Positions 915 to 4,847 of a stretch of DNA of 64,000 nt are shown in pieces. This stretch comes from a virus, in IMG/VR virus record IMGVR_UViG_3300020045_014031, positions 1-64,000 of that record; one strand, written 5' to 3'. Position numbers and translations under genes: made by a program. Under the pieces are notes generated by a model. That model did not search any database, was not told the DNA's origin, and was given only the letters and a program-made list of their open reading frames with translations. Position 1 is the first letter of the stretch, and each line of letters opens with the position of its first letter.

Positions 915-1235
915 ATGAAAACATTTTTATTTATTATATTGTTATTTTTTGTACAACAAAAAGACCATATAATTACATACTCAATTCCTTCAAGTACAAC
1001 GCTCAACTTTAATGAGCAAAATTACAACGAAGAAAAAGACACTTGGACTGAAACAAATGAATCAAACAAAAAAACTATTTTAGTTAAGACTAAACATAGT
1101 TTAGCATTCTTAAACATGGAACACAAAGAGTATGTTTGGTGTTCTGAACATAAAGAATTTGTTTTAATTGCTGTTTTTGACCAATTTAGAAGTAAATGGA
1201 AATATAATCCAAAATTAAGTAAATACTATAGATAA
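915..1235 (+). CDS. small exported protein (signal peptide), N-terminus resembles 652-906
   Basis: MKTFLFIILLFFVQQ...ITY. Confidence 0.65.
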   Translation: MKTFLFIILLFFVQQKDHIITYSIPSSTTLNFNEQNYNEEKDTWTETNESNKKTILVKTKHSLAFLNMEHKEYVWCSEHKEFVLIAVFDQFRSKWKYNPKLSKYYR

Positions 1236-1250
1236 TTAAAGAAAATAAAC

Positions 1251-1258
1251 TATATTTG
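1251..1258 (+). promoter_or_regulatory. putative Bacteroidota sigma -7 element upstream of the ncRNA/tRNA region
   Basis: TATATTTG matches TAnnTTTG; no clear -33 TTTG. Confidence 0.4.
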
Positions 1259-1269
1259 TATTAAGTTTA

Positions 1270-1915
1270 TAAGTTAATAACAATGTGTAAGTTATAAAAT
1301 AACGCCTTCGGGTTAGGATGTCTATATCAAAGAAATAGAACTTATTATTAATTAATTTTATAATACAAAAAATAATGTACTGATAAGAAGCTTAAGATTC
1401 TGATGATGTACTAATTAAACATAACAGCTATTTGAAAATTATAATAGTTATAAGTTATGTATTTATCGCAAAATAAAAAACATAGAAACATATTCTTGTT
1501 CTAATAATTAAGCGTGGTAACAGTTAATTATTAGTTTGTTCTTTTTCGTTTGGTCGAAAAACTTAATTAGTGAACGAAAAGTTCTTTATTTAAAAAATAC
1601 TAATGGTAGATGAATAATAAAGTCCTGTTCAATTCAGTTGTAACAACTTGGTTAGAGTTATTAACGTTAGTAATCTAAGAGTATTTTTAAATAAAGTTTA
1701 TATTTCACTTTTACAAAAAACTTAATAACTTTTCAAGATATTGAGAACAGCAGTTTTTATTAATAAATACATTGCGGAATACGGGATATTTATTAAAGTT
1801 TTAGCTGTAAAATACAATAATAAAATCTATTATATTACCTAATGAAAGATGAGGGTCAGTAGCATAAGTTGCACATAAATATTTACAAAGCAGAAAATAA
1901 TGCGTTCATTAGTTT
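1270..1915 (+). ncRNA. putative array of structured non-coding RNA units
   Basis: ~650 nt with no ORF >=60 aa in an otherwise gene-dense genome; about seven consecutive stem-closed units, one with a cUUCGg loop. Confidence 0.45.
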
Positions 1916-1919
1916 TTAT

Positions 1920-1992
1920 ACTCAATTAACTCAGTGGTTAGAGTGCCACTCTTATAAGGTGGAGGTCATTGGTTCGATTCCAATATTGAGTA
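1920..1992 (+). tRNA. tRNA-Ile (anticodon UAU)
   Basis: Acceptor ACTCAAT/ATTGAGT, D arm ACTC-AGTGGTTA-GAGT, anticodon arm CCACT-CT TAT AA-GGTGG, T arm ATTGG-TTCGATT-CCAAT; followed by CAA not CCA. Confidence 0.93.
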
Positions 1993-2030
1993 CAATTTAA
2001 AATTTTGGGTAAATGAAAAATCTATTACTT

Positions 2031-2063
2031 AAACACTACTATATATTATAGTAGTGTTTTTTT
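2031..2063 (+). terminator. intrinsic terminator after tRNA
   Basis: AAACACTACTATA/TATAGTAGTGTTT stem plus T run. Confidence 0.8.
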
Positions 2064-2102
2064 GTTTTTATAAGAATCTAACAATTTAAACTAATAATAA
2101 AA

Positions 2103-2333
2103 ATGTCAAAATCAGGAAGAACAATGGATAATCATACAAAAGGTTATCAAAAATCAGAAGGTAAAAACTCTACTATTTCTTATAGAGAAACAGGATGTGG
2201 TATTCAAGCTACTGTAATAAGTGGAGGTAATGAATACAATTCAAGAAGTTTTAATACTAAAGATGAAGCAAGACAAGAAGCTTCTAATTTAGCTACTGAA
2301 TCACTATCTTTCCTATATGAAGACAACAATTAG
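2103..2333 (+). CDS. small protein with dsRBD-like (or integrase arm-binding-like) pattern
   Basis: ISYRETG-GIQATVISGGNEYNSRSFNTKDEARQEASNLATESL fits three strands plus C-terminal helix. Confidence 0.5.
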   Translation: MSKSGRTMDNHTKGYQKSEGKNSTISYRETGCGIQATVISGGNEYNSRSFNTKDEARQEASNLATESLSFLYEDNN

Positions 2334-2637
2334 TGAATCAGAATTAGAGATTGAGAATGATATTCTCAATCTCTTAAAAGAAAACCCAAACAAAAATAAC
2401 AAAACATATCCTTTAACAGATAAAAATAGAAGAAACGGTGTTAGAAACTATATAAAAACTAACGGAAAACACATAAAAGGTTTTTATAATAAAGATACAC
2501 AATTTGACCAATTTGAAAATAGAATAAACAATATTATCAGATTATATACCAAATGTGAAACTAAATCAGTAAGAGGTGCAACTCTTAGAATTTCACATGA
2601 CTTTAATAATTTTGTAGAATGGTTTAAACAACTATAA
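2317..2637 (+). CDS. hypothetical basic protein
   Basis: 106-aa ORF overlapping upstream gene. Confidence 0.7.
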   Translation: MKTTISESELEIENDILNLLKENPNKNNKTYPLTDKNRRNGVRNYIKTNGKHIKGFYNKDTQFDQFENRINNIIRLYTKCETKSVRGATLRISHDFNNFVEWFKQL

Positions 2638-2646
2638 TAAGATATT

Positions 2647-2779
2647 GTACAATGTTATTATAAAAGTAAGCTCTTGTTTAAAATATCTGACTGGGTGAAG
2701 ATAATGGGGAGATAATATCAAGCGTCACAAGATTAAAAATCCTCTTTTATAATAACAATTGTACGAGGGAGAAATCCCT
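2647..2779 (+). ncRNA. putative structured intergenic RNA
   Basis: 20-bp outer stem with one bulge (2647-2666/2744-2764), inner TCTTGT/ACAAGA stem, then AGGGA-GAAA-TCCCT hairpin. Confidence 0.45.
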
Positions 2780-2802
2780 AATAAATTTTAAAATTTAAAA
2801 CT

Positions 2803-3033
2803 ATGAGATATAAATTTGCTATATTTTTTGAAAAATCTTCTATTGAAGAAATGGTAAGTGAAAAAGAAATTGCTTCCTACTTAGATATGTTAGATAATTC
2901 AATTAAAGCTTGTATTGTAATTGATTATCAAAAAATGCCAAGTAAAAGATGGTTGTATGTTAAACATATAAAAAAAGAAATTGATTATGAGTTAATAAAT
3001 AAAATAAAAGAAGAAATTAGTTATCATATATAG
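2803..3033 (+). CDS. hypothetical protein
   Basis: 76-aa ORF followed by terminator. Confidence 0.65.
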   Translation: MRYKFAIFFEKSSIEEMVSEKEIASYLDMLDNSIKACIVIDYQKMPSKRWLYVKHIKKEIDYELINKIKEEISYHI

Positions 3034-3048
3034 TTTTAGAACGTGATT

Positions 3049-3090
3049 AAACTAACTATTAGTTATACTGATAGTTAGTTTTTATTTTTT
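3049..3090 (+). terminator. intrinsic terminator
   Basis: AAACTAACTATTAGT/ACTGATAGTTAGTTT stem plus T run. Confidence 0.75.
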
Positions 3091-3111
3091 AATACTTTAA
3101 ATAATAATAAC

Positions 3112-3567
3112 ATGAAACATTTGTTTACTATTACTCAAGAATGGTTTGAGTATAACAATAAAAGATATTGTAGAAATACAGATTTAGAAGTAAATGCTTA
3201 CTCTTGGTTCAATAATGATAGAGTTGTTAATACATTTTTATCAGAAGAATTAGAAAAAGAATATCAAAAAAATAAAAAGAAAATAAAAAATATAATCAAT
3301 ATTAACTTAGAACCGAGATTAATATATGAAATATATATAGATATAAAACATACAAGTAATGTTATTTATAATAGACTTGTTGTTTTAAACAACGATAAAA
3401 AAGAAGTTCCTAAAGATTATTATAATAGTATAAAAAAACAAAACAATACTTTAAATGGTATAAAACAAAATTTATATAATTTATTATGTGATAAATTAAA
3501 CAACGGAAAAATAATTCAAGAACATTTAATTAAACAAAAATTAGAAGAATATGAAAAAACTATGTGA
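3112..3567 (+). CDS. hypothetical protein
   Basis: 151-aa ORF. Confidence 0.7.
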   Translation: MKHLFTITQEWFEYNNKRYCRNTDLEVNAYSWFNNDRVVNTFLSEELEKEYQKNKKKIKNIININLEPRLIYEIYIDIKHTSNVIYNRLVVLNNDKKEVPKDYYNSIKKQNNTLNGIKQNLYNLLCDKLNNGKIIQEHLIKQKLEEYEKTM

Positions 3568-3832
3568 TGTTATTGAAGAAATATGTAACAAAATAGAAAA
3601 TTACGGTGAACATAAGTTACATTGTTCTGCTAAATTAGTTAGAACATTCTTTTTATCTGGTTTAAAACCGTATCAAGAATTTGTATTAGTTTCTAAGGAG
3701 GAGTATTTAGATTTATTAGAAGATAAATTATCAATAGCTAAATTTAATTATATTTTTTCTAAAACTAACGCTAATGAGTTTATTAAAATAAAACAAGAAA
3801 TACAAGAAAAAATAGATTGTTTAAAATCTTAA
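3551..3832 (+). CDS. hypothetical protein, paralog of 3837-4148
   Basis: shared KEEYLDLL..KL and QEKI..LK. Confidence 0.7.
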   Translation: MKKLCDVIEEICNKIENYGEHKLHCSAKLVRTFFLSGLKPYQEFVLVSKEEYLDLLEDKLSIAKFNYIFSKTNANEFIKIKQEIQEKIDCLKS

Positions 3833-3836
3833 TAGT

Positions 3837-4148
3837 ATGAAAGAAATATATAATTTAATAATTGATTTCAAAAAAGAAATAGAAGAAAGACATAATCATT
3901 CTTCATCAAGTTCAACTAAAAGAACTTACAATATTGCTTTAGGTAAGTTCAAAAAATTATTTGGAAACTTTACTAAAGATGATATTGCAATTAATAAAGA
4001 AGAGTATTTAGACTTATTGTATTCAAAACTATACTTACAAGAAAAAGGTGTAACTGTATTAGAAGATATTAAAACATTTAGTAATGTTTTAAAACATAAA
4101 GAAATTAAAAATCTTCAAGAAAAAATAGAATACCTAAAACTTCTTTAG
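3837..4148 (+). CDS. hypothetical protein, paralog of 3551-3832
   Basis: shared KEEYLDLL..KL and QEKI..LK. Confidence 0.7.
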   Translation: MKEIYNLIIDFKKEIEERHNHSSSSSTKRTYNIALGKFKKLFGNFTKDDIAINKEEYLDLLYSKLYLQEKGVTVLEDIKTFSNVLKHKEIKNLQEKIEYLKLL

Positions 4149-4253
4149 GTATCTAATTAATGCTTCACTGTAACTTTGCAAGGGTTACTTACATAGGTAA
4201 AAAGCAGAGCAATTAGAAATTTTCAAATAATTTAACAAAAACAACAAAAACAA

Positions 4254-4847
4254 ATGGAAAATTTAGCACAAGCAGTAACTACACAGGGAGTTGTAATTAC
4301 TAAAAATTCAAAATCAGAAGATTTAAGAGATGCTTTTAAAGCACAACTTGAATCTGGTGAAGTATTTACTTATTTTATTGAACAACCTTTAGATGATAAA
4401 GGTAATCCTAAAAAAGATAAGCAAGGAAAAGAATATCTTGTTGCTTTTATGGTACAAAGTAGAAAACTACGTGATGATGCAACAGATGATTTGAATGCTT
4501 TATTATTAGGATGGAATAATGAAAGACTTGTTCGTACATTACATAGAATTGACAAAGATTTGTGGGATAAATCTTTAAATAAAATCTTTGGTATTGGTGT
4601 TCTTCAATCAAATATTGAAGCATTGAAAGGTAAATCAACTAATATTCAAGTTCAACACAAAGAAGAACCTGCTTATGAAAATCAATCTCCAAGACAAATT
4701 GGTGATACTTGGTTATTATCTCCAAGTGGTAAATATTCTTATGAACACACTGAATTAGTTGTAGGAGAACCTAAAGACGAACTTTATGATTCTGTAAGAG
4801 TAGAAAAAGCAGGTTATGCCGACCCAAGTGGAGAGGGAGAATTATAA
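4254..4847 (+). CDS. hypothetical protein, probably highly expressed
   Basis: 197 aa, balanced composition, ATT rather than ATA Ile codons, long A/C-rich leader, acidic tail. Confidence 0.85.
   Translation: MENLAQAVTTQGVVITKNSKSEDLRDAFKAQLESGEVFTYFIEQPLDDKGNPKKDKQGKEYLVAFMVQSRKLRDDATDDLNALLLGWNNERLVRTLHRIDKDLWDKSLNKIFGIGVLQSNIEALKGKSTNIQVQHKEEPAYENQSPRQIGDTWLLSPSGKYSYEHTELVVGEPKDELYDSVRVEKAGYADPSGEGEL

Follow-up and report, generated by a model that had tools for sequence, protein, structure and literature searches.

A free-standing protein with a predicted double-stranded RNA-binding fold in an optional cassette of a freshwater crAss-like phage

Introduction

[quoted passage not shown] The dsRBD itself is a known domain; it is the phage setting that is unusual. 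In bacteria, hardly any dsRBDs are known outside the tail of RNase III. When the E. coli RNase III dsRBD was compared by tblastn with 50,697 phage records, three records only matched, and these look like host fragments. We found no description of a phage-encoded free-standing RNA-binding dsRBD in the searched literature, and the term dsRBD is absent from a catalogue of 268 phage anti-defence proteins.

The initial annotation of this DNA had called the product stand-alone. It does stand alone, because a search of the whole phage genome revealed no catalytic domain of RNase III. The candidate that the protein is one half of a split RNase III was rejected for the same reason. Here we describe the gene and its family, the predicted fold and the residues that may touch RNA, the optional cassette in which the gene lies, and the different models for its function.

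The phage and its left-end block

The stretch of DNA that was analysed (the window) is 64,000 nucleotides long and comes from the start of an IMG/VR record of 97,183 bp, which is complete according to CheckV. A 2550-aa protein of this phage matches gp66, the virion RNA polymerase of phage phi14:2 (PDB 6VR4), with an E-value of 1e-19, and on this ground we assign the genome to the crAss-like phages. Among phages in culture, those closest to it are the Flavobacterium FpV4-type phages and Cellulophaga phage phi14:2, and the host probably belongs to the Flavobacteriia. Helicases, primase, DNA polymerase and rIIA are encoded in a block on the + strand, and the dsRBD gene lies in a left-end block of small genes.

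The dsRBD gene and its start

2103–2333, + strand: gene of the stand-alone dsRBD protein, 76 aa with an ATG start, from the ORF list, the alignment, AlphaFold and Pfam dsrm

The peptide quoted in the initial annotation corresponds to residues 35–68 of this product. The ORF goes beyond chance because 16 other members of its family come from independent metagenome sources and eight residues are invariant among them. The genome's own gene call for the ORF, P0002, begins at Met8, which is the internal ATG at 2124. We place the start at 2103 instead, since the N-terminal MSKSG is conserved in the family and homology on a foreign contig starts exactly there: in sequencing run X2, from a microbial mat, the similarity sets in at the ATG at 2103 and the sequence upstream of it is unrelated. 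Searches of reference collections with the dsRBD protein were otherwise silent, with no tblastn match in the 50,697 phage records at E-values up to 10, nothing relevant in NCBIfam, and in PHROGs a sub-threshold match to an HNH family only.

A family of small proteins in metagenomes

The family currently has 17 sequences, namely the window protein and 16 metagenome relatives that are 42–93% identical to it. Four close relatives and P0002 were found by a word-indexed search, five further relatives by an exhaustive phmmer scan of 1.8 billion cluster representatives, and a profile search extended the family to its 17 members (alignment A4). They derive from JGI, ENA, Logan and NCBI, and the contigs that encode them are up to 179 kb long (179 kb for P0008, 92 kb for P0021, 59 kb for P0020 and 36 kb for P0015). 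Most of the members (15 of 17) are 73–95 aa in length. Besides the conserved MSKSG at the N-terminus, K13, Q16, N22, Y27, G41, S47, A56 and R57 are invariant in all 17 sequences. One relative, P0003, carries the automatic JGI name "dsRNA-specific ribonuclease".

When the family profile was run against proteins of 281–2000 aa, no fused or longer forms were found. Searches for related loci gave no relative among viral contigs (queries A1, P0008, P0011, P0020, P0015 and the phage helicase), nor among metagenome contigs and genome contigs. Two members, P0006 (160 aa) and P0007 (159 aa), have a C-terminal extension of about 85 aa after the dsRBD, with an F-x-[LV]-GDFV motif. This extension could be a fused partner domain; it matched neither the downstream ORF nor the rest of the genome, and no match was found in Pfam or to a named cluster of the ESM Atlas.

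Predicted fold and structural matches

The AlphaFold model built from the 17 sequences (pLDDT 85.3, pTM 0.70) has the order alpha-beta-beta-beta-alpha, and the order of the elements was unchanged in a model built from 10 sequences (pLDDT 69.7). The predicted elements, in residues of the protein, are as follows.

Residues 3–19: helix 1
Residues 24–30: strand 1
Residues 33–40: strand 2
Residues 43–46: strand 3
Residues 53–72: helix 2

This model has the topology that defines a dsRBD (alpha1-beta1-beta2-beta3-alpha2 in approximately 65–70 residues), and in two independent types of superposition the solved dsRBDs fit it better than other folds do. VIA-align, which does not depend on Foldseek, was run against 48,161 PDB representative chains, and all 36 chains with Z of at least 8 are dsRBDs. 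The top matches are the two dsRBDs of HYL1, both with Z 10.1 over 67 residues: dsRBD1 (3adg) at an rmsd of 1.9 Å with 27% identity, and dsRBD2 (3adj) at 1.6 Å with 19% identity. Also among the VIA matches, PKR dsRBD1 is 25% identical to the window protein. In the Foldseek search of the PDB, each of the best 50 matches is a dsRBD, with TM-scores of up to 0.78. In a library of viral structures, the top matches were dsRBDs that come from eukaryotic viruses (TM 0.64–0.76), with reovirus VP5A and the ORF4a of a bat coronavirus as examples. In the ESM Atlas, the structural search returned first an unnamed viral cluster of 72 aa (TM 0.78) and then DRBM and RNase III clusters, and the search by features gave no match over the chance level (0.81).

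The initial annotation had recognized the pattern of strand 2, strand 3 and helix 2 of dsRBDs in the peptide and had proposed AlphaFold and Foldseek as a check. The resemblance is borne out: the predicted topology is that of a dsRBD, the best 50 Foldseek matches are dsRBDs throughout, Z reaches 10.1, and one relative, P0003, exceeds the gathering score of the Pfam dsRBD model described below.

Sequence signal and RNA-contact positions

At the sequence level the signal is faint in the window protein and clearer in some of its relatives. The window protein matches Pfam dsrm (PF00035) with an E-value of 0.049 and 14.7 bits, below the gathering score of 23 bits. Six of the 10 members scanned match dsrm at E-values up to 1, the highest scores being those of P0003 (23.5 bits; 76% identical to the window protein), P0004 (22.5 bits) and P0008 (21.2 bits). 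When the 97-kb phage was translated in six frames, ORF 2103–2333 was the sole match of dsrm (E 0.0077). The best match of the family profile among PDB sequences is PKR, which at an E-value of 0.22 is not significant, and neither is the hhalign comparison of the family with a single E. coli RNase III dsRBD sequence (E 0.17 over 12 columns).

Canonical dsRBDs contact RNA through three regions, and two of these look retained here, holding invariant residues that are not structural, with the third one gone. The retained regions lie at the two ends of the protein. In helix 1 (region 1), K13 and Q16 are invariant and may face the RNA. At the start of helix 2 (region 3), the HMMER alignment sets K53-D54-E55-A56-R57 opposite the KKEAK of PKR dsRBD1 and the KQEAK of PKR dsRBD2. 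Here A56 and R57 are invariant, 16 of the 17 sequences carry a K or R at position 53, and the middle lysine of the KKxAK motif (position 54) is replaced by D, N or E in every member, so that the pattern reads K[D/N/E]xAR. The missing part is region 2, the beta1-beta2 loop with its GPxH motif, which appears as a gap of six residues against PKR dsRBD2 in the HMMER alignment and as a turn of two residues in the model. P0008 alone retains a longer beta1-beta2 loop, with GP and no His. The GPxH loop touches the minor groove, and it is a mark of the canonical RNA-binding (type A) dsRBDs and not of the fold itself.

RNA-binding dsRBDs are usually basic. The members of this family have pI values of 4.2–8.9 and are mostly acidic to neutral. 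In most of them the charge is unevenly distributed, with a net value that usually lies at +2 to +4 over residues 1–30 (range −1 to +4) and at −1 to −9 over the C-terminal third. Judged from its sequence, the protein is thus an atypical dsRBD, with the loop deleted, the KKxAK motif altered and a mostly acidic to neutral charge.

Neighbouring RNAs and open reading frames

The surroundings of the gene contain several structured RNA elements and short ORFs, which are listed here in the order of their coordinates.

1920–1993, + strand: tRNA-Ile(UAU), upstream of the dsRBD gene (ARAGORN; Rfam tRNA, 71.5 bits)
2031–2059, + strand: hairpin resembling an intrinsic terminator, with a T-run, that ends the tRNA unit (z −4.71)
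2317–2637, + strand: downstream ORF of 106 aa that belongs to no known family (sub-threshold Pfam and PHROG matches only)
2346–2374, + strand: perfect 13-bp hairpin (−16.1 kcal/mol, z −4.28, equalled by 0 of 200 shuffles)
2646–2765, + strand: intergenic long-stem element, in which about 22 bp close a branched interior of 76 nt (−35.6 kcal/mol, z −3.45)
2766–2779, + strand: small GC hairpin after the long stem
2803–3033: ORF of 76 aa
3049–3081: terminator

The picture drawn by the initial annotation, of a gene between structured RNAs, is accurate in that the tRNA-Ile, the terminator hairpin and the long stem were all found. Since the hairpin at 2031–2059 closes the tRNA unit, the dsRBD gene opens the next one and leads a short unit with many RNA stems. 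Its immediate follower, ORF 2317–2637, shares a 17-nt overlap with it and is probably co-transcribed with it. The 13-bp hairpin lies 13 nt past the dsRBD stop codon, within the 5' end of this second ORF. The long stem has a perfect 14-bp core (2653–2666 paired with 2744–2757) and received a terminator-like call. It had also been considered as a phage sgRNA, a candidate that was dropped when the consulted paper gave no link. AAUAAAUUUU comes after the long stem and the small GC hairpin.

The window holds 36 perfect stems of at least 11 bp, and six of them are located within 1500–3100. Folded as a whole, the ORF-free stretch at 1236–1919 is marginally more stable than its shuffles (z −1.74). Rfam recognized nothing besides the tRNA in 1200–3200. 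At the left end of phi14:2, abundant early non-coding RNAs arise from long intergenic regions and persist through infection (bioRxiv 10.1101/2020.03.07.982082), and thus, by analogy only, it is plausible that the ORF-free structured stretches of the window are expressed.

Optional cassettes in relatives

2097–2406, + strand: optional cassette of about 310 bp, from alternative contigs in run X3

Logan contigs from four public runs were compared with the window over 1200–3200. The cassette contains the dsRBD gene in full together with the 13-bp hairpin, and it extends over codons 1–30 of ORF 2317–2637. It was recognized in run X3, an aquatic metagenome, where two alternative contigs have common ends at 2017 and 2507 and differ in the presence of the cassette between flanks that are almost the same. 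One of them carries the dsRBD gene uninterrupted, with 37 differences and a depth of 7.6. The other one, with a depth of 9 and 82 nt on its shorter side, joins 2096 to 2407, and at the junction it has 15 other nucleotides, which provide a new ATG that continues in frame into ORF 2317–2637 at codon 31. The hairpin at 2346–2374 is therefore gained or lost along with the cassette.

Other segments are optional as well. The hairpin array upstream (approximately 1250–1838) is skipped in runs X3 and X4, where 1249 or 1230 is joined to 1839, and it behaves as an optional insert; the array-skipping contigs have depths of 15.8 (X3) and 7.8. In one relative, 224 nt are inserted at 2639/2642, between the end of ORF 2317–2637 and the long stem, and the same relative lacks ORF 2803–3033, with 2774 joined to 3014. 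The long-stem element (2642–2774) is retained at about 95% identity in an X3 contig. Because several segments are skipped or inserted, we regard the region as a mosaic of small optional cassettes.

The initial annotation had suggested that the gene and the flanking array form an RNA-protein system and that the two should be followed together in relatives. In X3, the depth of the array-skipping contig (15.8) is close to the sum of the contigs with (7.6) and without (9) the dsRBD gene, so that the gene seems to occur without the array; the contigs are short and the observation is suggestive only. The array is skipped in a sample that holds the dsRBD gene, and in the two cultured relatives, phi14:2 and FpV4, neither the family profile nor dsrm gave a match. 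A dedicated system in which the protein works with the flanking array and the long-stem RNA is unsupported, since gene and array vary independently and the cultured relatives are without the gene.

Proposed function and alternative models

We tentatively favour a model in which the protein is an accessory binder of RNA duplexes that acts on host RNase III or on RNA sensing, a reading that we hold to be possible and somewhat short of probable. We infer RNA binding from the predicted fold, the homology and the conserved contact positions; the target and the benefit to the phage are putative. The protein would grip A-form RNA helices at two places. One grip would be the long basic N-terminal helix with the invariant K13 and Q16, and the other the start of the C-terminal helix, where K53, A56 and R57 correspond to K60, A63 and K64 of PKR. 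As the contact of the beta1-beta2 loop is missing, we expect the binding to be of moderate affinity or to favour short stems or stem-loops. Seated on phage RNA duplexes, the protein would be a competitor of host RNase III or of an RNA-sensing defence. The duplexes in question might be the hairpins that intervene between early genes, the 13-bp hairpin of its own cassette and the sense-antisense pairs of convergent gene blocks. The gene would then be a dispensable host-interaction gene and not a core part of the phage. That the protein shields dsRNA from RNase III or RNA-sensing immunity, as the initial annotation proposed, is a reasonable suggestion, which is weakened by the deletion of the beta1-beta2 loop and by the acidic to neutral charge. 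We regard as unlikely the particular scenario in which the dsRBD of a mobile mini-cassette coats phage RNA duplexes against host RNase III or against a Bacteroidota defence that senses RNA duplexes.

The same atypical features lead to a model of a different kind, which is somewhat unlikely on the present evidence and in which the protein is a protein-binding ("type B") dsRBD, that is, a small inhibitor or adaptor docking on a host protein and not on RNA. Its partner could be host RNase III, through pairing of dsRBD with dsRBD, or another enzyme, as T7 Gp1.2 binds dGTPase. The range of pI, together with acidic C-terminal tails such as DDDDDE, the deleted canonical loop-2 contact and the degenerate KKxAK all agree with it, and an optional cassette fits a host-specific inhibitor. 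The structural matches include dsRBDs in complex with a partner: TRBP with Dicer (7zpj_D, Z 9.1), dsRBD5 of Staufen with Miranda (5cff_E, Z 9.1) and DRB7.2:DRB4 (8igd, Z 9.7); T7 Gp1.2 bound to dGTPase (7u65_G) matches at Z 7.4. TRBP dsRBD3 (Dicer), Staufen dsRBD5 (Miranda) and Loquacious dsRBD3 are all among the top matches, and these domains bind proteins and not RNA. However, K13, Q16, R57 and the K or R at position 53 occupy the RNA-contact positions of canonical dsRBDs, and the matches of highest identity, dsRBD1 of HYL1 and dsRBD1 of PKR, are RNA-binding dsRBDs.

Three further models propose that the fold serves another type of ligand or activity. An oligomer resembling Acb4 of phage SPO1 might trap at its interfaces the cyclic-nucleotide signals of CBASS-type defences. 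Acb4 is likewise a small phage protein with a dsRBD-like fold, the dsRBD gene is accessory and lies in an early-type region, and the Foldseek search with the first, 10-sequence model included Acb4 (9e4w) in its matches, at a TM-score of 0.55. This match is far poorer than those of the canonical dsRBDs, though, and the Acb4 family PF13876 was matched neither by 10 members (E up to 1) nor in the six-frame translation of the genome (E up to 10). Moreover, the model has one helix per end and a beta3-helix loop of six residues, without the elements of the Acb4 pocket, all of which makes such a sponge improbable. Very improbable is the alternative raised by the initial annotation, an integrase arm-type or DUF2188 DNA binder that would recognize the dispersed GAGCCTTCTAAAA motif. 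An F.TK.EA-like string is present and 5 of 10 members have weak DUF2188 (PF09954) matches in residues 38–66, but the best of these (E 0.02, 15.5 bits) is under the threshold of 22 bits, as are all the others. In the model the N-terminal helix packs on a three-stranded sheet, which is the arrangement of a dsRBD; no arm-binding domain occurs among the 50 matches listed in each PDB search with the 17-sequence model, the top 50 of Foldseek and the top 46 of VIA-align being dsRBDs throughout, and the gene is optional among close relatives. We give hardly any credence to a HicA-like mRNA interferase toxin. Such toxins are described as small proteins with a dsRBD-like fold, but Pfam scans of the family gave no HicA match at E-values up to 1, no antitoxin-like neighbour gene was recognized, and there is no invariant His, H11 being F, L or Y in 10 of the 17 members.

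Relation to known systems

Canonical dsRBDs (HYL1, 3adg and 3adj; PKR, 1qu6; bacterial RNase III, 1yyk and 7r97) have the fold in common with the phage protein over its whole length, at Z 8.2–10.1. They also share with it the Tyr of strand 1, the Gly of the beta2-beta3 turn and the K-x-x-A-(K/R)-Q-x-A...L-A pattern of helix 2. In contrast to them, the phage dsRBD is the entire protein, without a nuclease, a kinase or a second dsRBD. It has no GPxH loop, the middle Lys of its KKxAK is acidic or an amide, and it is further set apart by the long helix 1 (residues 3–19), the conserved MSKSG start, the acidic-to-neutral charge and the fact that it is encoded by a phage.

It also resembles the dsRBD proteins of eukaryotic viruses (MERS-type ORF4a, reovirus, rotavirus and poxvirus E3), which are likewise small, virus-encoded and without an enzyme; here, however, the host is bacterial. 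Eukaryotic-virus dsRBD proteins of the ORF4a and E3 type mask dsRNA.

Two known phage proteins are also comparable. Acb4 of Bacillus phage SPO1 (PF13876) is a tetramer that binds 3'3'-cGAMP and acts as an anti-CBASS sponge, and its family has more than 1,300 members, phages of Bacteroidetes included. By its authors' comparison it has a dsRBD-like fold and sequesters cyclic dinucleotides, in a pocket to which three helices at the N-terminus (alpha1-3), two at the C-terminus and an extended beta3-alpha4 loop contribute. Like Acb4, the protein described here is small, stands alone, has a dsRBD-like core and is encoded by a phage in an accessory region of early type; unlike Acb4, it has no PF13876 signal, and the extra helices and the long beta3-alpha4 loop are missing from its model. 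T7 Gp1.2, the inhibitor of the E. coli dGTPase (7u65_G), is another small early protein of a phage, aligned over 73 residues at Z 7.4. This match has 7% identity and an rmsd of 3.1 Å, and it is ranked under 46 dsRBD entries.

The presence of a conserved free-standing dsRBD in a variable cassette of crAss-like phages suggests that RNA duplexes matter in infection, either in the processing of phage transcripts or in the evasion of defence. If the coating of duplexes were true, it would be the first phage counterpart of the E3- and ORF4a-type strategy of eukaryotic viruses, and in crAss-phage infections dsRNA would be a molecular pattern over which phage and host contend. In contrast stands Acb4, where a dsRBD-like fold has turned into a nucleotide sponge. 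The job of the present family, whether RNA binder, protein inhibitor or sponge, would thus reveal how phages reuse this fold, and a dsRBD protein of 76 residues is cheap and directly testable.

Additional observations

Some additional features were observed in the left-end block and in phi14:2. Upstream of the hairpin array, ORFs 652–906 and 915–1235 are small, stand in tandem and have hydrophobic starts resembling signal peptides (MKTILLLLSLLLF and MKTFLFIILLFFV), with no family match. Further downstream, ORFs 3551–3832 (93 aa) and 3837–4148 (103 aa) are adjacent paralogues (BLASTP E 3e-5) that share KEEYLDLL, and in ORF 3551–3832 a family of small terminase subunits (PF07141) is matched below threshold, over its N-terminal part (E 1.9e-4).

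In phi14:2 (NC_021806.1), ARAGORN calls a tmRNA at 4031–4502 with the tag GSSVQKLAMVA, at a place where the record has no RNA feature. The same segment scores 46 bits against Rfam tmRNA (gathering score 47; E 1.4e-16). The call lies just upstream of g006 and probably inside the g005-g006 junction, which is known as an abundant and persistent non-coding RNA of this phage (bioRxiv 10.1101/2020.03.07.982082).
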